Position numbers and translations under genes: made by a program
Assembly (NCBI GenBank): GCA_016721005.1
Contig: JADKJM010000019.1
Location: 323,747-387,746, forward strand
Length of the DNA stretch: 64,000 nt
Direction: 5' to 3'
Origin: Flavobacteriales bacterium
GTDB taxonomy: Bacteria; Bacteroidota; Bacteroidia; Flavobacteriales_F; PHOS-HE28
Notes under the pieces: model-generated
What the model saw: the letters and a program-made list of their open reading frames with translations, nothing else
Database searches by the model: none
What the model was told of the DNA's origin: nothing
Part shown: positions 6,001-42,146 of the stretch, in pieces
Layout: each line of letters starts with the position of its first letter
How positions within the stretch are numbered: the stretch's first letter is position 1

Positions 6001-9000
6001 CCGGTCACGGTACCGTTCAAGGAGATGGTCGCAGCGTTCGCGCAGACACTTCCATTCGCTCCGGCGTTCACGATCGGCGCAGGCGTATAGGTGATGATCT
6101 TGGTGGCAGTAGCGGGTGCGCAATTGCCGTTGCCCGTGGTGGTCAAGGTCAAGGTCACCTGTCCTGCGGCCAGATCACCGGCGCCGGGGTTGTAAGTCGC
6201 ATTGAGCGTATTCGCGTTCGGCGAGTACGTTCCCGTTCCACCGCTCCACACGCCGCCCGTTGCCACGATCACGCTGCCGCCGAGGGCAACTGCTGCGTTG
6301 TTCGCACAACGCGTCACGTTCGGACCAGCATTCGCAGAAGGCGGATCAGTGAAGGTCAAGAGCACTTGGTCGCTCACCGCATTGCACAAACCGTTGCCGG
6401 TGGTGGTGAGCGTGAGCGTCAAGCTTCCTGCTGCGATCTCCGCCGCCGTCGGCGTGTAGATCGCGCTCATGTTCGTCGTGCTTGGATCGAAGGTGCCCGC
6501 ACCGCCGCTCCAGATACCACCGGTAGCGATCGAGAATGCACCGGACAATCCGGTCGAAGCGTTGTTCGCGCAAAGCACACGGTCCGCACCGGCGTTCGCC
6601 GTCGGAGCAGGTGTGATGCTGTACGTCACCTGGGCGCTCACCGCATTGCAATTGCCGTTGCCCGTGGTGGTCAAGGTCAGTGTCACGGTGCCGGCGGCAC
6701 GTTCAGCCGCGCTTGGCGTGTACACCGCGTTCAGCGTGGCATTGTTCGGATTGTACGTGCCCGTTCCACCGCTCCAAGCAGCACCCGTGGCACCGGTGAT
6801 CGCACCAGCAAGCGCGATGTTCGCGTTGTTCGCGCACACCGTTCCGTTCGGTCCTGCATTCACGGTCGGCGCAGGCGTGAAGGTGATCAACTTGGTGTCC
6901 GATACTGCTGTGCAGTTCCCGTTGCCCGTGGTGGTCAGCGTCAACGTCAGTGTACCCAACGCGAGTTCCGCAGGCGTCGGCGTGTAGGTCGCGTTGAGCG
7001 TGGTGTTGTTCGGCGTGAATGATCCCGCACCACCGCTCCAGATCCCTCCAGTAGCAACTCCGACCGCACCATTCAGCGGAACGTTCGCGTTGTTGCGGCA
7101 CACGGATACATCCACACCGGCATCCACTGTCGGGCTCGGCGTGAAGCTGATCAACATCTGATCGCTCACTGCCACACAGTTGTTGTTGCCAGTTGTGGTC
7201 AACGTCAACGTCACGGAACCGTTCGAGAGCTCCGTCACCGTCGGCGTGTAGGTAGCGTTCATGTTCGTGGTGCCTGGGCTGAAAGTGCCCGCACCACCGC
7301 TCCACACACCACCGGTCGCGATCGTGAAGCCACCGTTCAAGGTGGTCGCCGAATTGTTCGCGCAACGCACTTGATCCACACCCGCGTTCACTGTCGGTGC
7401 AGGGGTGATCGAATAGGTCACGTTCGAGCTCACCGCATTGCAGTTACCGTTGCCGGCCGAGGTCAGCGTGAGCGTTACCGTTCCGGCGTTGCGTTCGGCA
7501 ACGGTCGGTTGGTAGGTCGCGTTGAGCGTGGTGTTGTTCGGCGTGAAGACACCGGCGCCACCGCTCCAGATCGCACCGCTCGCGCCACTCACCGATCCGT
7601 TCAAGGTGATCAATGAAGCGTTCGAGCAAACCGTCCCGTTCGGACCTGCGTTCACCACGGGAGCAGGAGTGAAGGTGATCGTGCGCGTGCTCGTGACGGC
7701 GTTGCAATTACCGTTGCCGGTGGTTGTCAAGGTCAGCGTCAGTGTTCCCGCTGCGAGTTCCGCAGGGGTCGGCGTATACACCGCGTTCAGCGTGGTGTTG
7801 TTCGGTGTGAAGGACCCCAGGCCACCGCTCCAGATACCGCCCGTGGCACCGGAAACCGAACCGGTCATCGTCACCTGCGGATTGTTCACGCAGATCGAGA
7901 TCGGAGCACCCGCGCTCGCAACAGGCGCTGGCGTGAAGCTGATCGTGACCTGATCGATAACAGCGATGCAGTTGTTGTTGCCGGTCGTTGTCAATGTGAG
8001 TGTGACAGAACCGGTCGCGATCTCAGCAGCCGTTGGCGTGTAGGTCGCATTCAGGTTCGTGGTGCTCGGTGCAAAAGTGCCTGCATCTCCGCTCCAAATT
8101 CCGCCCGTCGCAACGGTCACGCTGCCGGCAAGTGTTGCTACTGCATTGTTCGCGCAACGCGATTGGTTCGGACCCGCATTGGCTGTCGGAGCAGGCGTGA
8201 TCGAATAGGTAACGTTGCTCGATACCGCATTGCAATTACCATTGCCCACCGTGGTGAGCGTGAGCGTCACCGTACCCGCCGTACGTTCAGCAATGCTCGG
8301 CGTGTACACTGCGTTCAGCGTGGCGTTGTTCGGATTGTATGTGCCGGTTCCGCCGCTCCACACCGCGCCTGTTGCGCCGCTCTGTGAACCGGCCAAGGTG
8401 ATCGCGGAATTGTTCGCGCAGACGGTTCCATTCGGACCGGCGCTTACTGAAGGTGCAGGTGTGAACGAGATCACACGACTGCTCTGCACGGGGTTGCACA
8501 TGCCGTTGCCGGTGCTCGTCAGCGTCAAGGTCAAGGTGCCACCAGCGATCTCCGCTGCGGTCGGCGTGTAGGTCGCGTTGAGCGTTGTGTTGTTCGGATT
8601 GTAGGTACCCGTGCCACCGCTCCACACGCCACCGATCGCTCCGGAAACGCTGCCGTTCAAACTCACCTGTGCATTGTTCGCGCAGAGCGAAACGGGCGCA
8701 CCGGCGTTCACCACAGGTGCTGCGGTGAAGTTGATCACCATCTGATCGATCACGGCGACGCAGTTGCCGTTGCCGGTCGTCGTCAGCGTAAGCGTCACTG
8801 AACCATTCGCGATCTCAGCAGCGCTTGCTGTGTAGATCGCACTCATGTTCGTGGTGCTCGGATCGAAAGTTCCATTGCCGCCACTCCACACGCCGCCTGT
8901 CGCGACAGTGAAGGCGCCGCTCAGCGAGACCGCCGGATTGTTCGAGCAACGGGTCGCATCGGGACCCGCGTTCACCGTTGGTGTGGGCGTGATCGCATAG

Positions 9001-12000
9001 GTCACGTTCGCGCTCACCGCGTTGCAGTTCCCGTTGCCAACCGTCGTGAGCGTGAGGGTCACCGTGCCCGCCGCGCGTTCGGCAGCGGTCGGCGTGTAGA
9101 CCGCGTTCATGGTAGCGTTGTTCGGGTTGTAGCTGCCCGCGCCTCCGCTCCAGATCGCACCCGTTGCACCGGTGAAGGCACCGGCCAGCGTGATGTTCGA
9201 ATTGTTCGAGCACACGCTGCCGTTCGACCCAGCGCTCACCGTCGGTGCTGGCGTGAACGTGATCACGCGCGCACTGGAAACCGGATTGCAATTGCCGTTG
9301 CCCGTGCTCGTCAGCGTCAGTGTTACTGTGCCTGCGGCGAGATCGGAAGCGCTTGGCGTGTAGGTCGCGTTGAGCGTGGTGTTGTTCGGTGCGAAAGTGC
9401 CGGAACCGCCGGTCCATGCACCGCCCGTTGCGCCGAAGACACTGCCGTTCAAACTCACCTGAGCGTTGTTCGCGCAGAGCGAGATCGGCGCACCAGCGTT
9501 CACTGTGGGTGCATCGGTGATGCTGATCACCATCTGATCGGCTACTGCAGTGCAGGTGCCGTTGCCAGTGGTCGTCAACGTCAAGGTCACGATACCTGCG
9601 GTGATCTCCGCCGCGCTCGGTGTGTAGATCGCACCCATGTTCGTGGTGCTCGGATCGAAGGTGCCTGCACCACCGCTCCAGATACCTCCGGTAGCGATCG
9701 TGAAGGAACCGTTCAATGCAACGGTCGGATTGTTCGCGCACACCGTGCGATCGAGTCCGGCGTTGGCGGTCGGCGCAGGAGTGATCGTGAACGTCACCTG
9801 ATCATTCACCGCATTGCAATTGCCATTGCCTACCGTGGTGAGCGTGAGCGTCACCGTACCCGCTGCGCGTTCAGCAGCGCTCGGTGTGTACACCGCATTG
9901 GTGGTCGTGTTGTTCGGATTGTACGTACCCGTGCCGCCGCTCCAGATCACGCCGGTCGAAACCGTGAAGGCACCCGCCAAAGTGATCGCGGAGTTGTTCG
10001 CGCACACCGTTGCGTTCGGACCCGCATCCACCGTTGGTGCAGGTGTGAAGGTGATCACACGGCTGTCGGAAACAGCGGTGCAATTGCCGTTACCCGTGGT
10101 GGTCAACGTCAAAGTCAACGTGCCCGCAGCGAGTTCCGCGGGGGTCGGCGTGTAGGTCGCGTTAAGGTTCGTGTTGTTCGGCGTGAAGGAACCCGCGCCA
10201 CCGCTCCAGATCCCACCGGTCGCGATCGTCACCGATCCACCCATGGGCACGCTGGCGTTGTTGCGGCACAGCGTCAAGTCAGGACCTGCATTCGCCGTCG
10301 GACTTGCTGTGAAGTTCAACTGCACCTGATCCGTCACGGCGATGCACGTACCGTTACCGGTCGTGGTCAGCGTCAGCGTCACGTTGCCGTTCGCGATCTC
10401 CACGGCCGTCGGGGTGTAGGTCGCGCCCATGTTCGTGGTGCTCGGACTGTAGGAACCATTACCACCGCTCCAGACACCACCGGTCGCAACCGTGGAGGAG
10501 CCACTCAACGTGGCTACCGGGTTGTTGCTGCAAAGCGTTTGGTCCGGACCCGCATTCGTGGTCGGAGCAGGCGTGATCGTATAGGTCACACTCGACGCGA
10601 CCGCATTGCAATTGCCATTGCCCGCAGAAGTCAGGGTCAGCGTCACTGTACCGGCAGTGCGTTCAGCAGCGGTCGGTGTGTAGGTCGCATTCAGCGTGGT
10701 GTTGTTCGGGGTGTAAGTGCCACCGCCGCCGCTCCAGATCGCACCGGTCGCACCCGTAACAGATCCGTTCAAGCTGATCGTCGCGTTGTTCGTGCAAACA
10801 CTTCCATTCGGACCAGCGCTCACGATCGGCGAAGGCGTGAACGTGATCACCTTGTTGCTCATCACCGGATTGCAATTGCCATTGCCCGTGCTGGTCAAAG
10901 TCAACGTCAGTGTGCCACCCGCGATCTCCGCAGCGGTGGGCGCGTAGGTCGCAGTGAGTGTAGTGTTGTTCGGGTTGAAGGTGCCTGTGCCGCCGCTCCA
11001 AATGCCGCCGGTCGCACCGGAAACGGATCCACTCAAACTCACTTGCGCATTGTTCGCGCAGAGCGAGACCGCAACACCCGCATTCACCACGGGTGCATCG
11101 GTGATGAAGATCACCATCTGATCATTCACCGCCGTGCAGCTGCCGTTGCCGGTCGTCGTCAATGTCAACGTCGCGATACCCGCAGTGATCTCCGCCGCGC
11201 TCGGCGTGTAGACCGCCCCCATGTTCGTGGTGCTCGGATCGAAGGTGCCTGCGCCACCGCTCCAGATACCACCGGTAGCGATCGTGAAGGAACCGTTCAG
11301 TGCGACCGCTGCGTTGTTCGCGCACACCGTGCGATCGAGTCCGGCGTTGGCTGTTGGCGCAGGTGTGATCGTGAACGTCACCTGATCATTCACCGCATTG
11401 CAATTGCCATTGCCCACCGTGGTGAGCGCAAGCGTAACCGTACCCGCTGCGCGTTCTGCTGCGCTCGGCGTGTACACCGCGTTCATCGTGGTGTTGTTCG
11501 GGGTATACGTGCCCGCACCGCCGGTCCACTGGGCACCGGTTGAAACAGTGAACGCTCCGGCCAAAGTGATGGCGGAGTTGTTCGCGCACACCGATGCGTT
11601 CGGACCGGCATTCACAGTAGGAGATGGCGTGAACGTGATCAAGCGGCTATCGGCAACCGAATTGCAATTGCCGTTACCCGTGGTGGTCAATGTCAGCGTG
11701 AGCGTACCCGCAGCGAGTTCCGCCGGGGTCGGCGTGTAGGTCGCGTTGAGCGTGGTGTTGTTCGGCGTGAATGAACCGGCACCACCGCTCCAAATGCCGC
11801 CAGTTGCCACGGTCACCGATCCACCGAGTGCAATGCTTGCGTTGTTGCGACAGAGCGACAGGTCAGCACCGGCGTTGGCGGTCGGACTTGGCGCGAAGTT
11901 CAGTTGGACTTGATCGGTAACGGCGAGGCACGTGCCGTTGCCGGTCGTCGTCAAGATCAAGGTCACCGTGCCGCTCGCGATCTCCGCAGCGGTCGGCGTG

Positions 12001-15000
12001 TAGGTCGCGTTCAGGTTGGTGGTGCTCGGCGCGAACGTGCCCGCACCGCCGCTCCAGATGCCGCCCGTGGCGATCGTCACGCTTCCACCAAGTGAAGCCA
12101 CCGGGTTGTTGGTACACAGCGATTGATCCGCTCCTGCATTGGCTGTCGGAGCAGGCGTGATCGTCCAGGTCACGTTCGAGCTCACCGCATTGCAATTGCC
12201 GTTGCCTGCGGAGGTCAATGTCAGCGTTACCGTTCCAGCAGTGCGCTCGGCAGCAGTCGGCGTGTAGGTCGCATTGAGCGTGGTGTTGTTCGGGTTGTAA
12301 GTACCAGCACCACCGCTCCAAATGCCGCCGGTCGCACCGATCACGGATCCATTCAAGTTGATCGTTGCGTTGTTCGTACAAACGCTTCCGTTCGATCCAG
12401 CGCTCACGATCGGCGAAGGCGTGAACGTGATCACCTTGTTGCTCGCGACAGGATTACAGGCGCCATTGCCCGTGCTCGTCAATGTCAGCGTCAACGTGCC
12501 CGCCGCGATCTCCGCTGCGGTTGGCGTGTAGGTCGCGGTAAGTGTGGTGTTGTTCGGGTTGAAAGTGCCCGTGCCACCGCTCCAGATGCCACCGGTCGCA
12601 CCCGTAACAGATCCACTCAAACTCACTTGCGCATTGTTCGCGCAGAGCGAAACAGCAATGCCTGCATTCACAACAGGTGCCGCCGTGAAGGCGATCACCA
12701 TCTGATCAGCAACAGCGATGCAACCACCATTGCCAGTGGTCGTCATGGTCAGCGTCACCGTACCGCTGGAGATCTCACCAGCGGTCGGCGTGTACTGCGC
12801 ACCCATGTTCGTGGTGCTCGGATCGAAGGACCCTGCGCCACCGCTCCAGATGCCGCCTGTCGCTACCGTGAACGAACCGTTCAAAGTGACCACCGCGTTG
12901 TTCGCGCATACCGTGCGATCCACACCGGCGTTCGCTGTCGGTGCAGGCGAAATGGTGAAGGTCACCTGATCGCTCATCGCATTGCAATTGCCGTTGCCCA
13001 CCGTGGTGAGCGTCAGCGTTACCGTACCGGCAGTGCGCTCAGCAGCACTTGGCGTGTACACCGCATTCAGTGTAGTGTTGTTCGGAGCGTAAGTGCCCGT
13101 GCCGCCGCTCCAGGCCGCGCCTGTCGCCACGGTGATCGCGCCCGCAAGCGTGATGGCCGAGTTGTTCGCGCATACCGTCGCGTTCGGACCTGCATCAACC
13201 GTCGGAGCCGGAGTGATCGTGATCACTTTGCTGCTCGATACTGCCGTGCAATTACCGTTGCCGGTGGAAGTCAGTGTCAATGTCACCGTACCCGCCGCGA
13301 TCTCCGCAGCGCTCGGTGTGTAGGTCGCGTTCAACGTAGTCGCGTTCGGGTTGAATGAACCCGTGCCGCCGCTCCATGCGCCGCCCGTTGCACCGGTCAC
13401 ACTACCATTCAAAGCGACCTGAACGTTGTTCGCGCAAACCGGAACAGCAACTCCTGCGCTTACAACAGGCGCAGGCGTGAAGGTCAAGAGAACTTGATCG
13501 GTCACCGCTATGCAGCCACCGTTGCCGGTAGTGGTCAACGTCAGCGTCACTGATCCGCTGGAGATCTCTCCCGGGGTGGGCGTGTACTGCGCGCCCACGT
13601 TCGTGGTGCTCGGATCAAAAGACCCCGCGCCACCGCTCCACACACCACCTGTCGCAACCGTGAACGATCCGTTCAAGGTGGCCACTGCGTTGTTCGCGCA
13701 AAGTGTTTGGTCGAGCCCCGCGTTCGTTGTCGGTGCGGGTGTGATCGCGTAGGTCACGCTCGCGCTGACCGCATTGCAATTGCCATTGCCCACCGTGGTG
13801 AGCGTCAGCGTCACCGTACCTGCCGTGCGTTCCGCAGCGCTCGGCGTGTACACCGCGTTCATCGTGGTGGTGTTCGGGTTGTACGATCCCGTGCCGCCAC
13901 TCCAAACCGCACCTGTCGCGAGTGTGAAAGAACCCGCCAAGGTGATATCCGCGTTGTTCGCGCAAACACTTCCGTTCGCTCCGGCATTCACCGTAGGGGC
14001 TGCCGTGAAGCTGATGACCTTGTTGCTCGTGACGGGCAAGCAGTTGCCATTGCCTGTGCTGCTCAACGTGAGCGTTAACGTGCCCGCCGCGATCTCTGCA
14101 GCAGTTGGTGTGTAGGTCGCATTCAGCGTGGTGTTGTTCGGTGCGTATGAACCAGCACCGCCGCTCCAAGCCCCACCGGTTGCGCCGGTGACCGAACCGC
14201 TCAGCGTGACAACCGCATTATTCGCGCAGAGCGAAACCGCAGCGCCTGCATTCACGACTGGTGCTGCCGTGAAGTTGATGAGCACCTGATCGTTGACCGC
14301 AACGCAATTCCCGTTGCCTGTCGTGGTCATCGTCAAGGTCACCGAGCCGCTGGCGACCTCCGCAGCAGTGGGTGTGTATTGCGCCGACATGTTCGTCGTG
14401 CTGGGGTCGAAGGAGCCCGCACCACCGCTCCACACACCACCTGTGGCCACCGTGAACGATCCGTTCAACTGCACCACCGCGTTGTTCGCACAGCGCGTTT
14501 GGTCAGGACCTGCGTTCGCAGTGGGTGAAGGCGTGAACGTCACCAGCATGCTGTCCGCGACGGCCGCGCACACACCGTTACCGGTGGAGGTCAGCTTGAT
14601 CCACATTTGTCCGGCGGTGAGGTTTGCGGCAGTCGGCGTGTAGGTCGCGTTCAGGTTGCTGTTGCTTGGCAGAAAGGTGCCACCACCGCCAGTCCACACT
14701 CCACCAACTGCGTTCAACATGGTGCCTGCCAACTGCACCACGGAGTTGTTCCGACAAACGTTCTGGTCCGGTCCAGCGTTGGGGATCGGTTTCGGACTGA
14801 AGGTGACCACCATCGCGTCGTTGGCTGGTGTGCACGGACCTGTGGAGGTCAGGGTAAGGGTCACGCTGCCGATAGCGAGATCACCGATGCTCGGGTGGTA
14901 GGTCGCGTTCAGCGCCGTTGCACTTGGCATGAAGGTTCCGCTGCCGGTTGTTGTCCAGATACCCGTAGTGCTTCCTCCGGAAACCGTACCAGCCAAAAGC

Positions 15001-15060
15001 ACGGTGTCACCTGCACAGCGCGTTTGATCAGCGCCTGCATTCACGTTGATCTGCCCGGCG
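1..15060. repeat. Coding tandem repeat array, unit ~264 bp (88 aa), ~57 units, divergent (roughly 40-90% identity between units)
   Basis: Recurring wrong-frame peptide signatures (e.g. QLPLPVVVSVSVTVPAA…SAAVGV) at ~264-bp spacing through the whole interval, and direct minus-strand translation. Confidence 0.75.
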
Positions 15061-16439
15061 AATTCCGAGAAGAAGCCGTAGCGGCATCCGCTCGTTGCGC
15101 CGCCGTTGATGATGGCGAGCGAGAACACATCCGTGGTGTTCGAAACGATGAATGCTTGGTTCACCGGCACCTGCGTGGTGTTGTACTGGATCCGCGCGGC
15201 CATCCAAACCCCACCTGTGCCAGGTACCGTTTGGAACGCCGCACCCGGTATCGTTGCCGTACCGGGTGTTACCACGAAATTGTTCTGTGATCCGTTCCTG
15301 ACCAGGATATTCAGGAAGAAGGATTCGCTTGTACTTCGCGTGAAGCTGAGTTGCGTGCTTCCCGCGCAATTCAGCGGAGGCAGGATCGCCATGCCCTGCT
15401 CGCAACCGAAACCGGTGACATGTATGGCGTACAACGGCTTGGAGCCGGTGACCAACGTGGCGTTGTTCGCCGCGCCAGCCAGATAGTCCATGTCGTGGCG
15501 GTAGTACTGGCCAGCGAAGAGCGTGGCCACAGGAACCGGGTTACCATCGATATAGACCTGCGTGTTGTTCTGCACGGCCATCACGAAGAGAGATTCGTCG
15601 CCGGTGTTGTTCAGCGCACCCTTCACCGCCACGTACTCGGTGCCCAGAATGTTCACCGGAACGATCTGATCGAGCATCAGGTCATAGCAACCGCCCGAGG
15701 GGTTGTGGTTCGAATCGTCCTTGATCGAAACCGCGACCGGCTTGTCTGAAAGCACGACCGCTCCCGAAGGGTGCGTCAAAGGGTCGGTGTGTGTCGCCGG
15801 CACCGTGTTCGCCGTGGAGTAGGTCTGGCCCTGGTTCAGGATGATGGTCCACGGAACGAGCGCGCCATGACCATCCACCGCCACGGGCGAATAGATCATC
15901 ACCGTGGTGTTGTTCTGGGTCGCAACGATATCGAACGAAGCGAACGCGAGGTCGGCATTGTTCGGTGAGAAATTGTGATTCGCGAAAGGCGTGTGCTTGT
16001 GTAGCGGGATGTAGAATTCGGTGCCCAAGCCGTTGGCACCCTTCAGCGCCATGATGTCCGGGTTGTTCGTGTTGCTGCTCTCGTAGTAGCAAGTGATGTT
16101 GGCCGTGGATTGGATCCGAAGACCCGTGTTGCGAATGCTGTTCGTCGGGCGGGTCTCCAACTGGACCTTCAGCGCCGTCATGTTGTAGCGGACGGCCGAG
16201 TTTGCCGCCACATTGATCACGATGGGTGAGCCGCCGTTGAATCCGGCGTTCGCTGGCTGCGAGACCGTTACGGTCGCAGCCGCGTTGCCAGAAGTGACGT
16301 TGAGGTAGATCGGCTCATCCCCCGGCGTATTGTGGTAATACGTCACGTCGGGCGGAGCCATCCAGAACTCGGTTCCGGTCTGTGCGTGCAGGATCCCGGC
16401 CAGGACCACCGCAAGCACCAAGAGGAGTGCCTTTTTCAT
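1..16439 (-). CDS. Giant secreted cell-surface adhesin-like protein, partial (>5,470 codons in window). Signal peptide, ~450-aa N-terminal non-repeat domain, then ~57 tandem ~88-aa Ig-like beta-sandwich repeats (recurring NAG-x-DQ-x-x-C ... L-x-G-S ... GG-x-WSGG-x-G ... Y-T-P-[ST]-A-A-E ... G-N-G-x-C motifs). C-terminus, probably a T9SS/gliding-type sorting domain, lies beyond the window start.
   Basis: ATG at 16439..16437 (minus) followed by MKKALLLVLAVVLAGILHAQ (signal peptide). Hand translation of the minus strand gives protein-like repeats at the N-terminal end and at the window edge (…TLTTITNGSCAVSSDAMMI from 59..3) in the same phase (position mod 3 = 2). No minus-strand ORF in that phase is listed anywhere in 1..16439, which is expected only if the frame is stop-free for ~5,479 codons and runs off the edge. 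All listed ORFs in the interval are R/G/H-rich other-frame products. Confidence 0.8.
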   Translation of the reverse strand, partial: MKKALLLVLAVVLAGILHAQTGTEFWMAPPDVTYYHNTPGDEPIYLNVTSGNAAATVTVSQPANAGFNGGSPIVINVAANSAVRYNMTALKVQLETRPTNSIRNTGLRIQSTANITCYYESSNTNNPDIMALKGANGLGTEFYIPLHKHTPFANHNFSPNNADLAFASFDIVATQNNTTVMIYSPVAVDGHGALVPWTIILNQGQTYSTANTVPATHTDPLTHPSGAVVLSDKPVAVSIKDDSNHNPSGGCYDLMLDQIVPVNILGTEYVAVKGALNNTGDESLFVMAVQNNTQVYIDGNPVPVATLFAGQYYRHDMDYLAGAANNATLVTGSKPLYAIHVTGFGCEQGMAILPPLNCAGSTQLSFTRSTSESFFLNILVRNGSQNNFVVTPGTATIPGAAFQTVPGTGGVWMAARIQYNTTQVPVNQAFIVSNTTDVFSLAIINGGATSGCRYGFFSEFAGQINVNAGADQTRCAGDTVLLAGTVSGGSTTGIWTTTGSGTFMPSATALNATYHPSIGDLAIGSVTLTLTSTGPCTPANDAMVVTFSPKPIPNAGPDQNVCRNNSVVQLAGTMLNAVGGVWTGGGGTFLPSNSNLNATYTPTAANLTAGQMWIKLTSTGNGVCAAVADSMLVTFTPSPTANAGPDQTRCANNAVVQLNGSFTVATGGVWSGGAGSFDPSTTNMSAQYTPTAAEVASGSVTLTMTTTGNGNCVAVNDQVLINFTAAPVVNAGAAVSLCANNAVVTLSGSVTGATGGAWSGGAGSYAPNNTTLNATYTPTAAEIAAGTLTLTLSSTGNGNCLPVTSNKVISFTAAPTVNAGANGSVCANNADITLAGSFTLATGAVWSGGTGSYNPNTTTMNAVYTPSAAERTAGTVTLTLTTVGNGNCNAVSASVTYAITPAPTTNAGLDQTLCANNAVATLNGSFTVATGGVWSGGAGSFDPSTTNVGAQYTPTPGEISSGSVTLTLTTTGNGGCIAVTDQVLLTFTPAPVVSAGVAVPVCANNVQVALNGSVTGATGGAWSGGTGSFNPNATTLNATYTPSAAEIAAGTVTLTLTSTGNGNCTAVSSSKVITITPAPTVDAGPNATVCANNSAITLAGAITVATGAAWSGGTGTYAPNNTTLNAVYTPSAAERTAGTVTLTLTTVGNGNCNAMSDQVTFTISPAPTANAGVDRTVCANNAVVTLNGSFTVATGGIWSGGAGSFDPSTTNMGAQYTPTAGEISSGTVTLTMTTTGNGGCIAVADQMVIAFTAAPVVNAGIAVSLCANNAQVSLSGSVTGATGGIWSGGTGTFNPNNTTLTATYTPTAAEIAAGTLTLTLTSTGNGACNPVASNKVITFTPSPIVSAGSNGSVCTNNATINLNGSVIGATGGIWSGGAGTYNPNNTTLNATYTPTAAERTAGTVTLTLTSAGNGNCNAVSSNVTWTITPAPTANAGADQSLCTNNPVASLGGSVTIATGGIWSGGAGTFAPSTTNLNATYTPTAAEIASGTVTLILTTTGNGTCLAVTDQVQLNFAPSPTANAGADLSLCRNNASIALGGSVTVATGGIWSGGAGSFTPNNTTLNATYTPTPAELAAGTLTLTLTTTGNGNCNSVADSRLITFTPSPTVNAGPNASVCANNSAITLAGAFTVSTGAQWTGGAGTYTPNNTTMNAVYTPSAAERAAGTVTLALTTVGNGNCNAVNDQVTFTITPAPTANAGLDRTVCANNAAVALNGSFTIATGGIWSGGAGTFDPSTTNMGAVYTPSAAEITAGIATLTLTTTGNGSCTAVNDQMVIFITDAPVVNAGVAVSLCANNAQVSLSGSVSGATGGIWSGGTGTFNPNNTTLTATYAPTAAEIAGGTLTLTLTSTGNGNCNPVMSNKVITFTPSPIVSAGPNGSVCTNNATISLNGSVTGATGAIWSGGGGTYTPNNTTLNATYTPTAAERTAGTVTLTLTSAGNGNCNAVASSVTYTITPAPTTNAGPDQTLCSNNPVATLSGSSTVATGGVWSGGNGSYSPSTTNMGATYTPTAVEIANGNVTLTLTTTGNGTCIAVTDQVQLNFTASPTANAGPDLTLCRNNASVPMGGSVTIATGGIWSGGAGSFTPNNTNLNATYTPTPAELAAGTLTLTLTTTGNGNCTAVSDSRVITFTPAPTVDAGPNATVCANNSAITLAGAFTVSTGVIWSGGTGTYNPNNTTTNAVYTPSAAERAAGTVTLTLTTVGNGNCNAVNDQVTFTITPAPTANAGLDRTVCANNPTVALNGSFTIATGGIWSGGAGTFDPSTTNMGAIYTPSAAEITAGIVTLTLTTTGNGTCTAVADQMVISITDAPTVNAGAPISLCANNAQVSLNGSVFGATGGAWTGGSGTFAPNNTTLNATYTPSASDLAAGTVTLTLTSTGNGNCNPVSSARVITFTPAPTVSAGSNGSVCSNNSNITLAGAFTGATGAIWSGGAGSYNPNNATMNAVYTPTAAERAAGTVTLTLTTVGNGNCNAVSANVTYAITPTPTVNAGPDATRCSNNPAVSLSGAFTVATGGVWSGGNGTFDPSTTNMSAIYTASAAEIANGSVTLTLTTTGNGNCVAVIDQMVINFTAAPVVNAGAPVSLCANNAQVSLNGSVSGAIGGVWSGGTGTYNPNNTTLNATYTPTAAEIAGGTLTLTLTSTGNGMCNPVQSSRVISFTPAPSVSAGPNGTVCANNSAITLAGSQSGATGAVWSGGTGTYNPNNATLNAVYTPSIAERTAGTVTLTLTTVGNGNCNAVSSNVTYSITPAPTANAGPNQSRCANNAVATLAGSVTVATGGIWSGDAGTFAPSTTNLNATYTPTAAEIATGSVTLTLTTTGNNNCIAVIDQVTISFTPAPVASAGAPISICVNNPQVTMTGSVSGATGGIWSGGLGSFTPNNTTLNAVYTPTPAELAAGTLTLTLTTTGNGNCNAVTSTRTITFTPAPVVNAGPNGTVCSNASLITLNGSVSGASGAIWSGGAGVFTPNNTTLNATYQPTVAERNAGTVTLTLTSAGNGNCNAVSSNVTYSITPAPTVNAGVDQVRCANNSATTLNGGFTIATGGVWSGGAGTFSPGTTNMNATYTPTVTELSNGSVTLTLTTTGNNNCVAVSDQMLISFTPSPTVDAGVDVSVCRNNANVPLNGAVGVATGGIWSGGAGSFTPNNTTLNATYTPTPAELALGTLTLTLTTTGNGNCTAVSDTKLITFTPAPTVNAGPNGTVCANNANIALAGAITGATGAAWSGGTGTYNPNNATLNAVYTPSAAERAAGTVTLTLTTTGNGNCNAVSAQVTYSITPAPTANAGADRVLCANNASTGLSGAFSIATGGIWSGGAGTFDPSTTNMSAIYTPTAAEIAAGSLTLTLTTTGNGLCNAVSDQVLLTFTDPPSANAGPNVTRCANNAAVALGGSVIVATGGVWSGGTGTYSPNANTLNATYNPGAGDLAAGQVTLTLTTTGNGNCAPATATKIITYTPAPIVNAGANGSVCANAATISLNGTVTGAAGGVWSGGAGSFSPNSITLNATYTPTAAEITAGTVTLTLTSAGNGLCNAVTNNVTYTITPAPTVNAGVDQSVCGNNATATLNAVITVATGVQWSGGSGSYSPGSTAQNITYSPSPIEVVNGSVTLTATTTGNGTCAAVSDAMVITYTQAPTANAGPDQTVSSNNANTTLAGSFSIATGATWSGGAGSYSPNNTTMNAVYTPTPAEIAAGSVTLTLITTGNASCSPATDQITIFFGAAPTANAGPDQTVCANNPAVQLNGAITIATGGIWSGGTGTYNPNNSTLNAIYTPSAAERAAGTVTLTLTSVGNGNSNPVSDQIVITITPAPIANAGVDRTVCANQPTAQLAGVVNNATGGIWSGGSGTFNPSNTNLNATYTPTLGEVAAGMVTLTLSSTGNGLCNGVSDQMVIFIAPSPVVNAGVDRTVCANNASVQMAGSVSNAGGGIWSGGTGTFSPSINTLNAVYTPSTSELANGSVTLTLSSTGNGSCLSVSDQMVIFFSQSPVVNAGLDRTVCANDPTVILNGSVTIASGGVWSGGGGTYTPNANTLNASYYPSPAEVALGTATLTLTSTGNGLCNAVSDQMVITIIASPSANAGADIAVCSNNAQVQLGGSVSGAGGGQWSGGAGTFAPSIASLNAIYTPTAVEITAGTLTLTLTTIGNGNCVPVSDQVLITFTASPTANAGGDGVRCANNASIQLNGTVTVANGGTWSGAGGTFTPNANALNAMYTPSAGELAAGQVTLTLTTTGNNGCAAMSDAVSYTFTPAPTANAGVDLFTCANNPSVTLNGAITVATGALWSGGNGSYTPNNSTLNATYVPSASEISAGTVTLTLTTVGNGTCNPVTDQVMITINPSPIVNAGTPLTSCANNSSAQLAGSVQNATGGMWSGAGVFTPSATNLSATYTPSNAEIAAGAATITLTSTGNGLCNAVSSQVVLTITAAPIVEAGVNQVLCANNPIAQLAGQVTNATGATWSGVSGAFSPNSSALNASYTPSTAEIASGQAWLFLTSTGNGGCLATTDSVRLQFTPAPTANAGLDIRICANTTQVNLNGAVTVATGGAWSGGAGLFTPSNAALNASYAPTAAEMASGQFNLILSTTGNGNCTVVRDSLVVIVDPVPVVNAGPDQQICANNSNVQLNGFVGNAPGGAWSGGAGTFFPSNTMLATQYAPTAAEIAAGSLTLTLSSTGTVYCTAVTDQMTIIFTGAPIVSAGSDLQICANNSAVQLTGNVTNASGGTWTGASGTFAPSSNVLSPVYTPSAGELAAGTLSLYLTSTGNGNCIAVRDTMVVTFTPAPTVNAGADLDVCMNNPVVNLNGSITVATGAQWSGGLGTYTPNAQTLNAQYAPSNFELGSGSVQLTLTTTGNGNCLAVTDQVTITVTPSPVVNAGADVITCSNQLQVPLNGTVQGGATTGLWSTTGTGLFSPTASTLNATYIASSLDSLSGTVDLTLTSTSNGLCNAVSDVLTVTILPNAIADAGVDQVICSTTNTIQMNGTITGNATQGQWTSTGTGSFLPNAADANAVYQVASGDPALGTITFTWSVNSCDNAMDQMVLTITPASVASAGADQVTCYNNLNIVINGSVNGASSSGTWSTLGSGAFANPNTALSNVYQASANDQLAGGAYLVLTATSTGVCQAAIDTMFIAIQPAGTVNAGVDVTACANNGVTQLNGTLSGDATQVQWTTSGTGSFFPNANVLTPTYVPSAIDTTIGILTLTLSAPNTCNNATDAMLLTLTPAPYVNAGADQTFCNAVTQFNLSGTISGITNMGQWTTTGTGTIANAGSLNTTYTASAADVANGSIAFTLTSLNNANCNPVSDAMTIYLTNGIVTSAGPDQNVCVLSSQANLQGSIQNGSPSGTWTSTGTGTFSPNADVLNAQYFFSAADVTNGSVVLTLTATNTGTCPSTQDAMVITFGNSSYAFAGADQALCANAPIAQLAGNFSGGSQGITWSSTGSGFFSNNTDPNATYTMSGADITSGSVQLTLTTITNGSCAVSSDAMMI
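5800..14250. repeat. Higher-order tandem repeat: a 792-bp unit (three consecutive ~88-aa domains, A-B-C) repeated ~10-11 times with high inter-copy identity (about 85-95%)
   Basis: Near-identical translated segments recur at multiples of ~792 bp. Examples: the MQLPLPTVVSVSVTVPAARSAALGVYTA… ORFs at 9814, 11398 and 13774 (spacings 1584 and 2376 bp); DPFKLIVALFVQTLPF at ~10768 and ~12352 (1584 bp apart) with a DPFKVINEAFEQTVPF relative at ~7594; related copies near 6650 and 8230. Boundaries are approximate. Confidence 0.65.
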
Positions 16440-34565: not shown

Positions 34566-35546
34566 ATGCGCCATGCGATCGGCTTTCTGCTCGTGTGTGC
34601 AAGCAGCGCTCTTCTCCCGTTCTTCACTTCAGCGCAGAACCTAGTGCCCAACGGTGGGTTTGAGGAATACACTGTCGATTGCACATTCGGGATCGGATTC
34701 TATGGATTGGCGGATTGGCGCTACTTGAACTGCGGAAATTCTCCAGGGCTTGCGCGCGCGTGCAACAATAACACTGGCAATGGTGGTGGTGTTCCTCAGA
34801 GTGGGTTAGGGTATCAGTATGCACATGAAGGGGATGGGTTCATTATGACAGAACCGTACTTCTCGAATGCGCAAAGCGGCCTCCCGGATGCCAATCCACA
34901 GACATACGCCAACGTGGACCTCGTACAGTCCTTGACCGCCGGGCAACGCTATTGTTTGCGGTTGTGGATGAACATGGCTGACTCATCCTGCTATCGTACT
35001 GACACCTTCCATGCCTATGTCGGTTACGGCATTCCCACCCTGTGCAATTATGCGGATACCGCATGGGACACCTATGCCACGGCCACGTGGGACATCAGCA
35101 TTGTGGATACCGCCGAATGGACCTTGCTTGAAAGCGAGTTCATCGCCAATGGTGGGGAGACCAACCTTACACTCGGTGCTTTCCAGTTCGATGCCGAGAT
35201 CAACAGCGTATTCCTTGCTGATCATAGCAGCTTGTTCGGTGCGCTTGTCGCGGCATACTACATAGATGATGTGGAACTCTGGGCCTGCCAAGTGGGTGTG
35301 GAGGAAGTGAACAGCAACAACGCGCTTGCGCTTTTCCCGGACCCCGCTGACCAATGGGTCACCATGTCCTATTCGGGGGTCGATGTGGTGGGTGCCGCTC
35401 TATCCAACACGGTTGGACAGGATGTGACCCCGAAGAGTTGGGGCGCCACCACCTTATACCATTTGGAACTAAGAGATCGCCCAAAGGTGCCGTGCGATGT
35501 TGAAGTAGTCGAAGTTGCAGATGGACTTTACCTCAGTGGGGCTTAG
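34566..35546 (+). pseudogene. Secreted T9SS cargo protein gene interrupted inside its C-terminal sorting domain by an IS630-like element. Native ORF ends at 35456; the in-window reading continues into IS sequence.
   Basis: Signal peptide MRHAIGFLLVCASSALLPFFTSAQ. C-terminal …LALFPDPADQWVTMSYSG…VGQDVTPKSWGATT is the N-terminal half of a type-A Por_Secre_tail. The matching end of the domain lies at 36599..36715 beyond the IS. Confidence 0.65.
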
Positions 35547-36598
35547 TGAGTGGACCTGCTTGGAGTCGCTGAGTTGAGCGGGGGTTTCGAAGGTCATGTT
35601 GGGAGGCGCGTTGAAGCGCCACCAGCTTGGAGTTGGGGTGCGATGGGGGAGGAACAATGGGCGCCGTTGAGCGGCCAACTGAGGTGCTTGGTTTTGTGGA
35701 AAGCACCGTTGTCCACGGATCTTGAGCTCTTCGGGTCGATGCGTTGCAATGAGGAAGATCGGAAGGTGTAGCCAGAACAACAGGGTAGTTCCAATTGGAA
35801 ATTATCGCCCGATATAGGCGAGTACGCGCCGAAGACATAGGTGTATTGGAAGACCTGTTGGAAAGCACATACCGGCTTGACCCCCTTTGGCCGATCCCTT
35901 ACCAGCACGGGTGAAAAGGCCGAAGCGGCTCTCATCACAATACAGGTTCACACTGGAGCAGCCCGGCGGAGGGCGGGTGGTCAACTCGAACAGAGTTGCT
36001 CGAAGTTTTTTAAAAGCCGTGATGGCCTCCGGGATCCTTCTTCACATGTGACTTGCGGGCGACCTTACACTGGGCTCCATAGTTGCGCTTGACGAACTTG
36101 TTCATCGTGGAGTAGTTGACCTCTTCATTGAACCGCTTGTTGAACCACGCCAACAATTCAGTGAAGCCCCGCAGACCGTTGCCCGGTTCACGCAACTTCA
36201 AACGCAAGGCCTCACGCTGATCAGGTTTGATCACGCTGGGCCGGTTCCCTTTCCAGTTGTGCGAAAGCAACCCGGCCAGCCCTCCTTGGATATATGCGTT
36301 GCGCCATTTCATGGCGCTGCCCGCATCCACGCCCAGCGCCTTGGCAACAGCATGCTTGGAGATACCTTCCTGTTCATGCTCTTTGTAGAGGATCAATACT
36401 CGGACCCGACTACGCATGGTCTCGGTATTGACGCGCCTGAGCTCCCGGCGCAACGTCACCATGTCCTCTTTGATATCGAACCTTTGGGATTGGCCATCTG
36501 CCCTGTGTTTTTCGCCACAGATCGAACCACCGATCAAACGATCAAGAGCTTCAGGAAAATGATATCAACATTGGAGGACAATCATATTCCAAATGGTA
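35457..36598 (-). mobile_element. IS630/Tc1-mariner-family insertion sequence, 1,142 bp, with a degraded transposase gene
   Basis: Perfect 12-bp terminal inverted repeats TACCATTTGGAA (35457..35468) and TTCCAAATGGTA (36587..36598), flanked by direct TTA (35454..35456 and 36599..36601; TA-containing target duplication). Internal minus-strand IS630 orfA-like N-terminus plus frameshifted DDE_3-like fragments. Confidence 0.75.
35594..36537 (-). pseudogene. IS630-family transposase, frameshifted/degraded
   Basis: ORF 36010..36537 (-) carries the HTH/orfA part (…RSRVRVLILYKEHEQEGISKHAVAKALGV…WRNAYIQGGLAGL…SHVKKDP). Downstream DDE_3-like pieces lie in other frames: 35802..35984 (…NLYCDESRFGLFTRAGKG…) and 35594..35938 (…YTYVFGAYSPISGDNFQLELP…VDNGAFHKTKH…). 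Confidence 0.65.
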
Positions 36599-36715
36599 TT
36601 ACTCCCGGACAGGCAAGCCTTGGATGTATCCAGCTTGCCCGCCGGTGCTTATCTCCTGAGCGTTCGCACCAAGGATGGTAACCTGTTGTCGCGCCGCTTG
36701 GTGATCCAGCACTAG
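36599..36715 (+). other. Displaced 3' fragment encoding the last 38 aa of the T9SS C-terminal sorting domain of gene 34566
   Basis: LLPDRQALDVSSLPAGAYLLSVRTKDGNLLSRRLVIQH* is the canonical end of a Por_Secre_tail domain. It is in frame with 34566..35456 once the IS and one TTA copy are removed. Confidence 0.7.
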
Positions 36716-38968: not shown

Positions 38969-39682
38969 TCAGGACAAGGTGGCGTGCAGAACGGCCGGTG
39001 ACCGTAGCTCGCCAAGACCATCCACGTGGAGCCTGAAATAGAGCAAGAGATGATCGAGCAGGTCCCGGCGCTGGGCGGCAGGAAGAACCACTTCCTCCAG
39101 TGCGCCCAGTTCGATATCAAGCAATCGGATCAGCACGTTGCTGAGTGGTGGAGCAAGGGTGTGTCCGTGTGGAACACCTGCCGGAACGAAACATCCGGCC
39201 ATCAGGTCGAAATGATCCGCGCCGGGTGAAGGATGCTCCGGAAAGAAGCCCAGATGCCCGGAGAGCTGCAAGAGGAAGATCAGCGGATATCCCTGCAACA
39301 CATCACTGGCATCAATGGTCTCCAGCGCTTCGCGGACGAAGGCATCGAGCGACGGGTCCGCCGCCTCCGCCCGGAGAACGCGGTACAACACTTCCTGTGT
39401 GAAGAGGATCAGCGAGCCACGGATCGGGTCGCGATGCACATTCAAGTAGGGCTTCTCCACGCGGACCTCGCGCGCGGTATGCATGTCCGCGTCGGGTCGT
39501 TCATCCGCGACCAGTTCGATCCGGTTCAGTGGTTGAAGCGCCGCCATGGATCCGCCGTTCTTCGCACCGGTCCGCACCATGTAGGATCGCGCCCCCGCGT
39601 GTGTGGTCCAGGTCTTCACCACCACGCTGCGATCGCCGTAGCGAATGGTCTTCAGGACAATGGCGTGTGCGGTCTGCAACAT
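38969..39682 (-). CDS. recO: DNA repair protein RecO
   Basis: 237 aa; N-terminal OB-fold region MLQTAHAIVLKTIRYGDRSVVVKTWT… and overall RecO-like organisation. Confidence 0.7.
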   Translation of the reverse strand: MLQTAHAIVLKTIRYGDRSVVVKTWTTHAGARSYMVRTGAKNGGSMAALQPLNRIELVADERPDADMHTAREVRVEKPYLNVHRDPIRGSLILFTQEVLYRVLRAEAADPSLDAFVREALETIDASDVLQGYPLIFLLQLSGHLGFFPEHPSPGADHFDLMAGCFVPAGVPHGHTLAPPLSNVLIRLLDIELGALEEVVLPAAQRRDLLDHLLLYFRLHVDGLGELRSPAVLHATLS

Positions 39683-39711
39683 CTCGATCGCGTTCTACGC
39701 TCGAAGCCCGA

Positions 39712-42066
39712 TCAACGAACCACGAGCAGCTTCGTGTTGCACTTGTACAAGCCTTCGCGGTCACTGGAGAACACCATGTACACGCCCGTGGCCACGCGGT
39801 TGCCGCTCATGTCGTTCCCGTTCCAGATGGCTTGGCCACCCAACGAGGTGGTGCGATAGACCAGGTTTCCGCTCACGTCGGTGATCTTCACTTCGGAGTC
39901 GCGCACAAGACCCGTGATCGAAATGGGGCCGGTGTATGTTTCGCGAACCGGATTCGGGAAGATGGATGCGCAATTCGCATCATCCGCGCTTTCCACCGCA
40001 TCCGATCGGTAGCCGATGATCCCACGGTCCGTGCCGAAGAAGACCTCGCCGGTGATATCGTTGATCGCGATCGAGGTGATCGTGTTGCTGGGCAATGGAC
40101 TGTTCGTCTCGGTGAAGTGGTGGATCTGCGTGCGTCCATCGGCACTCACCAGGAAGGCGCCTCCGGTCTGGGTGCCGATCCATTTCCGGTTCGCTCCATC
40201 CACGGTGATCGCACTGACGAATTCGGTCTCGAGCAGGATCTGCACGTTGCCGCTCTGTTCGATAAGGATCTGTTGCGCGTCGTAGTTGCCTTCATTACTG
40301 AAGATGGCTGCCGGGTCGTAGAAAACAGCGATGCCCTTGCTCGTTCCCACCCAGATCTGGCCGTCCTTGTCCTCGGCGATGCTCAGGACATCCGGTGATG
40401 GAAGTCCACCTGTTCCGGGTGTGTTGTTGACCGCTTTGTACTGGTCGTCGCCAGTGTCGGAGATCGTGCCATTATCATTGAAGACCAACAGCGCATTGCC
40501 TCGCGGACGGATGATCCATTTGTACCCGTTGCTCGCCGCAAGGATCTCCGCGAGGAGAAGGTTACCGTTGAGCACCGAGCCGGGTGTGAAACTGTACCAT
40601 GTGCCGTTCCGCGTGCGAACGGAAATGGGCGCAGCGGCCCAAGCATTGGTCATCCATAGGTTCCCTCCTTGGTCATAGCTCAAGCCGCCCACGTTCACCT
40701 TGCCCGATCCATCATTGGTGACCACTCCGAGCGAACTGTTCCCTACTGTGTAGTTGGCAACGGGTACACGATCGCGGAACTCCAACAATGCATCATCCCA
40801 GCTTCCAGCAAAGGCGTGGTTCGGGTCGTCCGGATCCACGGCCACGCAGATGAAATCGTTCATGGCACCTGCAAAAGCATTCCCGCCGGCCATGGTCGGA
40901 TCATTGTCCGGTTTCGTGGTCCGCCATTCCTCGTCGACGAAATGATGCACGCCGTCCTTGAGAAAGGTATTGCCCCAATTCCCGGAAGGGCTTCCAGCAG
41001 CAACATACACAGCGCCTCCGCGTGAATCCATGCGGTATACACTTGCGTTCAGCGGTCCATTGGGTCTCACGGTCGTGCCCAGTTCTCCCCCATCGGCGCG
41101 CGCAAGCCCAGCGAACCGGTCAGCGACCCATAGGTAGCCATTGGAAGAGCGGATCGAACGCGCAGGAATGGCCGGGACCGATCCATATGCCGTGGTCTGG
41201 CTGATGAATTGTTCGTTCGGGCCGAAGGTCCCGATGTCGTATTCGTGGGAGAAGACAATGAACTGTCCATCCGCCGAAACACGCATGTCGTGGTTCCTTC
41301 GCCCTTGGATCTGCGAGAACCGTTGCCACGTGTTATCGGGTCGAAGGACAAGCACGGTGTCGGTGTCATCACTGGTCTTCCGGAAGTTGATGAAGGGGTG
41401 CCCTTGGAAGGTCTGGGCCAGATCGAACGGACCATTGGCCATGCCATCGCCCATGTCCGTCCGCTTACGCCAGCTGGTGAAGGCGGTCAGGTTGGGGGAA
41501 TTCCGTCCTGCGGTGTAGAGCCCGGTGCTCGTGGCCGCATAGATGGAGTCCGCACTGAAGGTGATCGCATTCACTTGCAACTGTCCACCATTGGGGCCGA
41601 TGAACCAGGTCTCCTTCACCTCGCGGCGCGCCAGATCCACCACCACAATACCAAAGCCACAGCCGAGGTAGGCCGTGGTTCCTTCCTGGTGCACCGAATA
41701 GATGGCCTTGTCGCCAAGGATCGAGCTGCGCTTGATGTCGCCCATGTTGAAACTACGCTCGCCTTCCACGAGATCCAAGTTCCCATTGCCGTAATACACG
41801 ATCAGCGTATGCAGTTCCTGGTTCCACGCCAACCCGCGGATGTCCACATCGTTCAGCGCATTCGTCTTGTTGATCCGGTCGATCTCGCCGGTTGATGGAT
41901 CGAAGCGGAACAGGCCGTTGGCCGTGGCACAATAAGCCTTTCCATCACCTTCCACCACGTCGATCATCCGCAGGTACGGGAAGTGATCCCGCCAGGCGCC
42001 GATGGGTGTCTGGCTAAAACCGGCCAGGGAGAGCGTCACGAAAAGGACGGAGAGATAACGATGCAT
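39712..42066 (-). CDS. PorZ-like T9SS protein: two-component-regulator-propeller (Reg_prop) repeats plus a type-A T9SS C-terminal sorting domain
   Basis: Signal peptide (…LSVLFVTLSLAGFSQ); many Reg_prop-like repeats (…AYCATANGLFRFDPSTGE…, …SIYAATSTGLYTAG…, …IWVGTSKGIAVFYDP…). C-terminal …SIFPNPVRETYTGPISITGL…TGVYMVFSSDREGLYKCNTKLLVVR is a Por_Secre_tail. ATG at 42066 (the ORF-track start is an upstream GTG). Confidence 0.6.
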   Translation of the reverse strand: MHRYLSVLFVTLSLAGFSQTPIGAWRDHFPYLRMIDVVEGDGKAYCATANGLFRFDPSTGEIDRINKTNALNDVDIRGLAWNQELHTLIVYYGNGNLDLVEGERSFNMGDIKRSSILGDKAIYSVHQEGTTAYLGCGFGIVVVDLARREVKETWFIGPNGGQLQVNAITFSADSIYAATSTGLYTAGRNSPNLTAFTSWRKRTDMGDGMANGPFDLAQTFQGHPFINFRKTSDDTDTVLVLRPDNTWQRFSQIQGRRNHDMRVSADGQFIVFSHEYDIGTFGPNEQFISQTTAYGSVPAIPARSIRSSNGYLWVADRFAGLARADGGELGTTVRPNGPLNASVYRMDSRGGAVYVAAGSPSGNWGNTFLKDGVHHFVDEEWRTTKPDNDPTMAGGNAFAGAMNDFICVAVDPDDPNHAFAGSWDDALLEFRDRVPVANYTVGNSSLGVVTNDGSGKVNVGGLSYDQGGNLWMTNAWAAAPISVRTRNGTWYSFTPGSVLNGNLLLAEILAASNGYKWIIRPRGNALLVFNDNGTISDTGDDQYKAVNNTPGTGGLPSPDVLSIAEDKDGQIWVGTSKGIAVFYDPAAIFSNEGNYDAQQILIEQSGNVQILLETEFVSAITVDGANRKWIGTQTGGAFLVSADGRTQIHHFTETNSPLPSNTITSIAINDITGEVFFGTDRGIIGYRSDAVESADDANCASIFPNPVRETYTGPISITGLVRDSEVKITDVSGNLVYRTTSLGGQAIWNGNDMSGNRVATGVYMVFSSDREGLYKCNTKLLVVR

Positions 42067-42146
42067 CACGTTCGGTTCAAGGGTTCGGGCACGCGTTCAA
42101 CGCCAAATCGGGCCGATCCGTATGGGCCAAGGTAGATCCGGGAAGG

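Follow-up and report, generated by a model that had tools for sequence, protein, structure and literature searches.

Introduction

Insertion sequences (ISs) of the IS630 family measure about 1.0-1.4 kb, insert at the dinucleotide TA and generate a 2-bp TA target duplication. The family is listed among those that use frameshifting, and transcriptional realignment has been cited for an IS630 element of Roseiflexus (PMC5009743). Type IX secretion system (T9SS) cargo proteins carry a C-terminal domain (CTD), which in type A comprises motifs A to E; its last 13 residues are needed for secretion, and the last 22, with motifs D and E, can suffice (PMC10202324). Both systems meet in the 64,000-nt stretch analyzed here, which comes from the metagenome-assembled genome (MAG) of an uncultured Flavobacteriales bacterium from wastewater; we refer to the stretch in full as the window, and all positions are numbered along it. 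In the window, a T9SS cargo gene of 334 codons is split at 35456/35457 by a 1.14-kb element of the IS630 family, as found by direct reading and by script. We consider it probable that this is a young insertion of a two-open reading frame (two-ORF) IS630 member in a type A CTD, and that the seeming decay of the element is made up of a native frameshift and, for the most part, uncorrected Nanopore errors.

Results

The insertion and the empty site

A preliminary description of the locus had delimited a 1,142-bp segment with perfect 12-bp inverted repeats (IRs) between direct TTA repeats, and the segment, its coordinates, the flanking TTA and the peptides quoted from it were all reproduced by direct reading and by script (Table 1; L and P numbers are our own handles for loci and proteins). 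The 12-mer TACCATTTGGAA is found at 35457-35468 and its reverse complement at 36587-36598 (script check); the IRs are perfect, but a repeat finder extends them to 13 bp. Excision of 35457..36601 joins 34566..35456 to 36602..36715 in an ORF of 1005 nt that codes for 334 aa and ends in SWGATTLLPDRQALDVSSLPAGAYLLSVRTKDGNLLSRRLVIQH and a stop codon; the sequence of the empty site is ACCTTACTCCC. As assembled, the host ORF extends instead to 35546 and codes for 326 aa, of which the final 29 are encoded by the IS, and this truncated product, IS-encoded tail included, matches MBL0129318.1 ("hypothetical protein IPP83_18140"), encoded on a MAG contig of 800 kb, at 100% identity.

The reconstructed protein of 334 aa matched the whole length of TIGR04183 (1-72/72, 24.5 bits, cut-off 23), whereas the same profile search found no TIGR04183 match in the interrupted ORF of 326 aa, so that the insertion lies within a type A T9SS CTD, as had been proposed. 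PF18962 also aligned to the reconstructed protein over its full length, at 19.2 bits, under the Pfam gathering threshold of 27, and orthologues of the host gene carry the PF18962 annotation. A database search returned an uninterrupted orthologue of exactly 334 aa with 95% identity, P0035, and about 30 further family members. Four P0035 contigs share the gene order of the window, in which a LysM/SLT protein and an 81-aa ORF precede the host gene, and continue, as the window does, with an S9 peptidase, RecO and a PorZ-like protein on the opposite strand.

When the DNA was compared, the two flanks in the window met at ACC TTG CTC CCG of the P0035 locus with a two-base overlap, and comparison of the host DNA with the orthologue gave 370 mismatches and 4 gap openings. 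At the insertion point the orthologue has TTG and the window TTA, a synonymous difference that created the TA target in the window gene. In an alignment of 18 sequences the junction SWGATTL/LPDRQ is seamless and falls in a variable loop, with the conserved LDVSxLPxGxY core directly downstream. The two CTD halves are thus contiguous both in P0035 and in the family alignment, which was the orthologue check set out in the preliminary description, and its claim that deletion of the element restores the reading frame is borne out by the uninterrupted orthologue in the same synteny.

Table 1. Coordinates of the interrupted cargo gene and of the inserted element in the window.
Feature	Coordinates	Strand	Remarks
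Host gene 5' part	34566..35456	+	297 codons: candidate signal peptide, beta-jelly-roll cargo module, proximal half of type A CTD
Left flanking repeat TTA	35454..35456		Canonical parse: TA target copy 35455-35456, one junction base missing
Terminal IR, transposase-distal	35456..35468		ATACCATTTGGAA; same terminus in L008, L012, L014, L016, L018
IS630-family insertion sequence	35457..36598	-	1142 bp as assembled; 1189-bp core in intact relatives, same parse
orfB (DDE_3 catalytic domain) remnants	35469..35984	-	Scattered over three frames
orfA/orfB recoding site	36005..36015	-	T4A6 in window; T4A7 in all intact close copies; A7-A8 in distant copies
orfA (helix-turn-helix DNA-binding part)	36010..36537	-	175 open codons from TTG
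Terminal IR, orfA-proximal	36587..36599		TTCCAAATGGTAT; repeat finder
Right flanking repeat TTA	36599..36601		Canonical TA target copy 36600-36601
Orphaned host gene 3' end	36602..36715	+	37 codons + stop, LPDRQALDVSSLPAGAYLLSVRTKDGNLLSRRLVIQH, distal half of CTD

Family of the element and its native recoding layout

The assignment of the element to the IS630 family is supported by its protein domains. The 175-codon orfA of the window matched NF033545 at positions 4-124/299 (E 3.5e-15) and contains HTH_23/29/32 domains. The raw DDE fragments of the window, single or stitched, gave no Pfam match at threshold, and we identified them by their homology at the DNA level to intact copies. A repaired consensus of the window copy and its sister copy L008, with an OrfAB of 357 aa, reached 168.8 bits with NF033545 (cut-off 100; 4-297/299) and 73.4 bits with DDE_3 (PF13358; 2-145/146), and is collinear with the OrfAB of L005. 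The peptides quoted in the preliminary description lie in the minus-strand ORFs 36010..36537, 35802..35984 and 35594..35938. Two catalytic residues are present in the window, D1 in LYCDES (35928-35945) and D2 in VDNGA (35702-35716); the PELNPAEKVW stretch, which is expected to hold the catalytic E, is missing from the window copy as assembled through a 15-nt deletion near 35626 and is present in L008 and L012.

Relatives of the window orfA are nearly all separate ORFs of 172 aa, and in L005 and L006 the layout is intact, with a 172-aa orfA and, after it in the -1 frame, a DDE_3 ORF. Our scan of genome contigs found one close copy only, L008, elsewhere in a Flavobacteriales MAG (JADJKO010000018.1, 1033-2218), and L012-L021 came from a metagenome scan. 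Among the intact copies, L012 is the closest one found, with 96% identity to the window/L008 consensus. The short-read copies L012, L016, L013 and L005 have a core of 1189 nt, an orfA of 172 aa (183 in L016), a T4A7 (GGCTTTTAAAAAAACTTCG) at the overlap and an orfB of 194 uninterrupted codons in the -1 frame. From this -1 layout at T4A7 it follows that one of the "frameshifts" of the window copy is native: the frameshifted fragments of the preliminary description are present as assembled, but one of the shifts is a recoding site and not decay. Because a run of A7-A8 followed by CTTCG is kept in copies of 60-75% identity (A7-A8 in L009-L011 and L018), the conserved A-run would be a functional recoding site.

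Some IS copies carry short palindromic mini-insertions of their own (L007, 2918-4030; L017, 1697-2809; L014, 3-1188). In these, GATCCGC(C/A)GTACGGCGGAC stands in place of the A-run recoding site and orfA is lengthened to 191-192 aa, and the orfB of L007 additionally has CCCGGATGTAACTCCGGGG and CCGCCGTGCGGCGGAC. These mini-insertions look like small hairpin elements or repair footprints that target the IS. In the distant relative L009, the 5' terminus is partly duplicated in tandem at 2354-2374 (TACCATTTA-TACCATTTGGAC). Within the window, the IR 12-mer occurs three times when up to one mismatch is allowed, against 0.09 expected; the third site, at 15225, was considered as a further copy or a miniature inverted-repeat transposable element and rejected as a chance occurrence within the giant minus-strand ORF described below.

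Target duplication

The termini of L012 and L016 read TA/ATACC...GGTAT/TA, and the 3' ends of L014 and L018 read GGTAT/TA. In the window we find TT/ATACC...GGTAT/TA, which equals TTA/TACC...GGTA/TTA; the TA stands at its place on the right, and the left junction is one base short, such that TTA...TTA resembles a 3-bp duplication. The termini of L008 are TG/.../GA (or TGA...TGA), and both L008 and the window fit the canonical parse only with one T missing at GGTAT[T], in which case L008 would have a TG duplication. A 3-bp T-N-A duplication (TAA in the window, TGA in L008) was rejected as a family rule, since L012 and L016 are flanked by TAA at one end and by TTA at the other, a pair that only TA with 13-bp IRs can account for. 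The apparent non-TA site of L008 would be unusual for IS630/Tc1-type elements if its sequence is correct. Frame restoration is unaffected by these differences, as every duplication parse yields the same empty site.

Lesions of the window copy and natural divergence

The window copy and L008 are sister copies that share 40 substitutions relative to L012 and have an orfA 100% identical over ~450 nt. As a pair they differ from L012 by these 40 substitutions and at most 3 indel columns, and their private changes show the reverse pattern. Private indels number 14 in the window copy, 13 of them deletions (net -47 nt), and 7 in L008, 6 of them deletions; L008 has only 2 clean private substitutions, and the apparent substitutions of the window lie mostly in shifted blocks beside indels. 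Among the window lesions, a 1-nt deletion after 36483 puts the canonical ATG of orfA (36495-36497) out of frame, and an extra C is present at ~36033.

Of the 21 private indels, 10 are no more than 2 nt away from a GATC, where 3.4 would be expected (P about 5e-4), and several others are in short homopolymers, the A-run included. After reciprocal filling of the private deletions between the window copy and L008, a single 1-nt repair common to both, at a distance of 5 nt from a GATC, is enough to give the intact OrfAB of 357 aa.

We saw no general assembly damage in the unique DNA of the window, in 5.5 kb of flanks compared with the orthologous loci and in 3.2 kb of the giant minus-strand ORF, which is uninterrupted over the length examined. 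Within these 5.5 kb of flanks, indel differences are limited to one compensating -1/+1 pair at 39682-39701, its two gaps 19 nt apart, at the boundary of RecO and the PorZ-like gene. The first gap of this pair adjoins a GATC. Over the whole window, GATC occurs at 11.4/kb, ~3 times the prediction from base composition (~3.7/kb, a rough estimate).

Other copies and long-read provenance

The IPP83 MAG holds at least two more copies of the element, with orfA annotated in pieces: P0030 with P0032 on a contig of 443 kb, and P0026 on one of 21 kb. Set by eye against the consensus frames, P0030 and P0032 have at least three frame switches and P0026 at least five, at positions that are intact in the window copy; no intact copy of the element was found in this MAG. 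Each of the four long-read copies is thus broken in a way of its own, and all short-read copies that have a T4A7 run are intact.

The MAG of L008 is named EsbE_18-Q3-R3-47_BATAC.451 and its contig "tig...", a naming scheme that matches the Nanopore project of PMC8012365. That project assembled Nanopore reads with CANU and polished them with Racon, medaka and one Illumina Racon round (PMC8012365). With the Oxford Nanopore base-callers of that period, consensus errors were dominated by methylation motifs and homopolymers (Wick et al. 2019, PMC6591954).

The cargo protein and its severed targeting signal

A candidate signal peptide was recognized by eye at the N-terminus of the host protein (MRHAIGFLLVCASSALLPFFTSAQ/NLVPN). 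The AlphaFold (AF2) model of P0035, with a predicted local distance difference test score (pLDDT) of 77.6, has an N-terminal helix (2-21), a beta-rich cargo domain and a CTD of beta-strands (254-257, 264-269, 274-281, 300-305, 312-320 and 325-332; pLDDT about 64-86 there). In the model the CTD forms an immunoglobulin (Ig)-like beta-sandwich, and the insertion point, residue 297/298, is in the loop before strand 300-305. Because a Foldseek search of the PDB matched the modeled cargo to carbohydrate-binding modules (CBM4, CBM22, CBM16), gingipain K1-K3 adhesin domains and MAM domains, the host gene would encode a jelly-roll protein for secretion, either carbohydrate-binding or adhesin-like.

The final 37 residues are severed by the IS, and since these hold the distal CTD motifs required for secretion, it is a sound inference that T9SS targeting would be lost. 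The preliminary description had stated that the gene lost its secretion signal; the severing of the distal motifs stands (PMC10202324), and a loss of secretion itself would be expected by analogy.

Among relatives, the jelly-roll cargo module of ~230 aa occurs with three C-terminal ends, namely a type A CTD (PF18962), a type B/gliding-motility CTD (PF13585) and an OmpA-like domain (PF00691). This distribution suggests that the anchoring mode may have been swapped around one cargo module.

Other features of the window

The PorZ-like gene (39712..42069, minus strand) lies two genes from the interrupted cargo gene, and PF21544 (PorZ_N_b_propeller) was found in the syntenic loci L001 and L002. The window gene has a faint Por_Secre_tail match of its own.

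A giant secreted repeat protein is encoded on the minus strand of ~1..16,420, with its start near 16.42 kb (MKKALLLVLAVVLAGILHAQ...). It is built of modules of ~95 aa with the pattern NAG.DQ..CAN..V.L.GS.T.ATGG.WSGG.GSF.P…YTPT..E…G.V.LTLT; its ORF is open through at least 13.3 kb and probably continues past the window start. No long minus-strand ORF was listed for this region, and the plus-strand ORFs listed at 474-15749 all start with TTG, which is consistent with antisense artefacts.

Discussion

What has to be explained at this locus is the insertion with its empty site, the membership of the element in IS630, its native recoding architecture and the abnormal indel pattern. According to our preferred reading, a two-ORF IS630-family element would have jumped to a TA target within the variable CTD loop of a type A T9SS cargo gene. 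In its intact state the element would have an orfA of 172 aa and, through -1 recoding at T4A7, an orfB with DDE_3, together giving an OrfAB of 357 aa. The insertion parts the 37 terminal residues from the proximal CTD and the cargo, such that the product would be exported by the Sec route to the periplasm and would no longer be recognized by the T9SS. The event would postdate the split from the 95%-identical sister lineage and would be young by the substitution clock. The indels would be uncorrected Nanopore consensus errors, small deletions of which many fall at putatively methylated GATC and in short homopolymers, and the real element is probably intact and mobile. That most of the damage in the window copy stems from incomplete polishing of a multi-copy repeat seems likely to us, because the long-read copies are broken differently and the short-read copies are intact, and because of the indel pattern itself.

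Several points weigh against this explanation. The evidence for an artefact origin of the indels is circumstantial; we infer that the IPP83 MAG is a Nanopore assembly from its contig sizes and from a sister MAG, and GATC methylation in the window organism is putative. Several lesions of the window copy span more than one base (5, 5, 6 and 15 nt) and come with clustered mismatches, which goes beyond simple homopolymer miscalls, and the 1-nt deletion CACTT[C]GCAAC, found in the window copy as well as in L008, could be genuine and inherited. The loss of secretion is an extrapolation from other species.

The preliminary description had taken the degraded transposase as a sign of an old event and of an immobile element. 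In those terms the window copy would be a truly decayed, transposase-dead relic that can no longer move, which we regard as possible but unlikely. As assembled, the start of the copy is indeed displaced, its run is A6 and not A7, about 13 indels disturb its frame, its DDE fragments have no Pfam match and the catalytic-E segment is absent, and some of its lesions, at 5-15 nt, are above typical base-calling slips. A relic fits poorly, however, with perfect IRs, with an orfA 100% identical to that of a second copy and with private changes in which deletion-biased indels are plentiful, cluster at GATC and are accompanied by almost no substitutions, the reverse of the natural divergence in the same data. 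It fits poorly as well with four long-read copies broken in different ways when every T4A7 short-read copy is intact, and one of the frameshifts counted as decay is native. Nor does immobility follow, as intact IRs permit mobilisation in trans. Were the lesions real, a young event would still be indicated by the perfect IRs, by the identical orfA of L008 and by the absence of the insertion from the 95%-identical sister lineage; the old age previously assigned to it is not upheld.

A good deal less probable is that the lesions are real but recent, the copy having arrived defective and non-autonomous and having been mobilised in trans, via its perfect IRs, by intact copies. The combination of perfect IRs with a broken transposase would be explained in this way, and the deletion common to the window copy and L008 could have been copied from a defective progenitor; but this lesion, 5 nt from a GATC, is the only one shared, the other 21 are private to single copies, and the same MAG yielded no intact copy and broken copies that all differ. 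We give very little credence to the idea that the lesions are biological in the sense that the lineage inactivates multi-copy ISs by repeat-targeted, Dam-site-linked deletion, an analogue in prokaryotes of repeat-induced mutation; if it were true, each IS copy would be riddled with small deletions while single-copy genes stayed intact. Least probable of all is an assembly chimera, in which the assembler would have put a repeat copy into a gene that the cell carries uninterrupted. The multi-copy nature of the element and the probable origin of the contig from a metagenomic long-read assembly speak for it. Against it, both junctions match the ends of the element to the base, the flanks meet precisely at the empty site of the orthologue, with T(T)A duplicated, and long reads easily span a repeat of 1.1 kb.

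One IS630-family element that disrupts one of many T9SS cargo genes is biologically routine. The case calls for caution in that, in hybrid-polished long-read MAGs, multi-copy ISs can resemble frameshift-ridden pseudogenes while unique genes are clean, and to infer "old", "immobile" or "degraded" from such repeat sequence is unsafe; likewise, the programmed frameshift of two-ORF IS630 members is not to be scored as decay. On the side of the host, the locus provides a clean case from nature in which a CTD is divided immediately upstream of motifs D and E, and an intact orthologue is at hand for comparison.

The damage seen in the window copy resembles the residual consensus errors of Nanopore assemblies (PMC6591954) in its small, deletion-biased and copy-specific indels, in their enrichment at GATC and short runs, and in their confinement to a repeat that short-read polishing cannot resolve; unlike those errors, documented in PMC6591954 for Dcm (CCWGG) and not for GATC, the window lesions of 5-15 nt with clustered mismatches exceed the classic profile. 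With type A T9SS CTD cargo of Bacteroidota (TIGR04183/PF18962) the host gene shares a putative signal peptide, a cargo domain, a beta-strand CTD of ~80 aa and a PorZ-like gene nearby; it differs in that it is split by an IS, with motifs D and E not translated together with the cargo, and in that its cargo is an uncharacterised CBM/adhesin-like jelly-roll. The element itself, at ~1.2 kb and with short IRs, a helix-turn-helix part and DDE_3, orfA and orfB joined at an A-run, and the TA duplication seen in the well-sequenced relatives L012 and L016, is much like other two-ORF IS630 members such as that of Roseiflexus, from which the window copy as assembled departs by its A6 and many indels, and L008 by its apparent insertion at a non-TA (TG) site.

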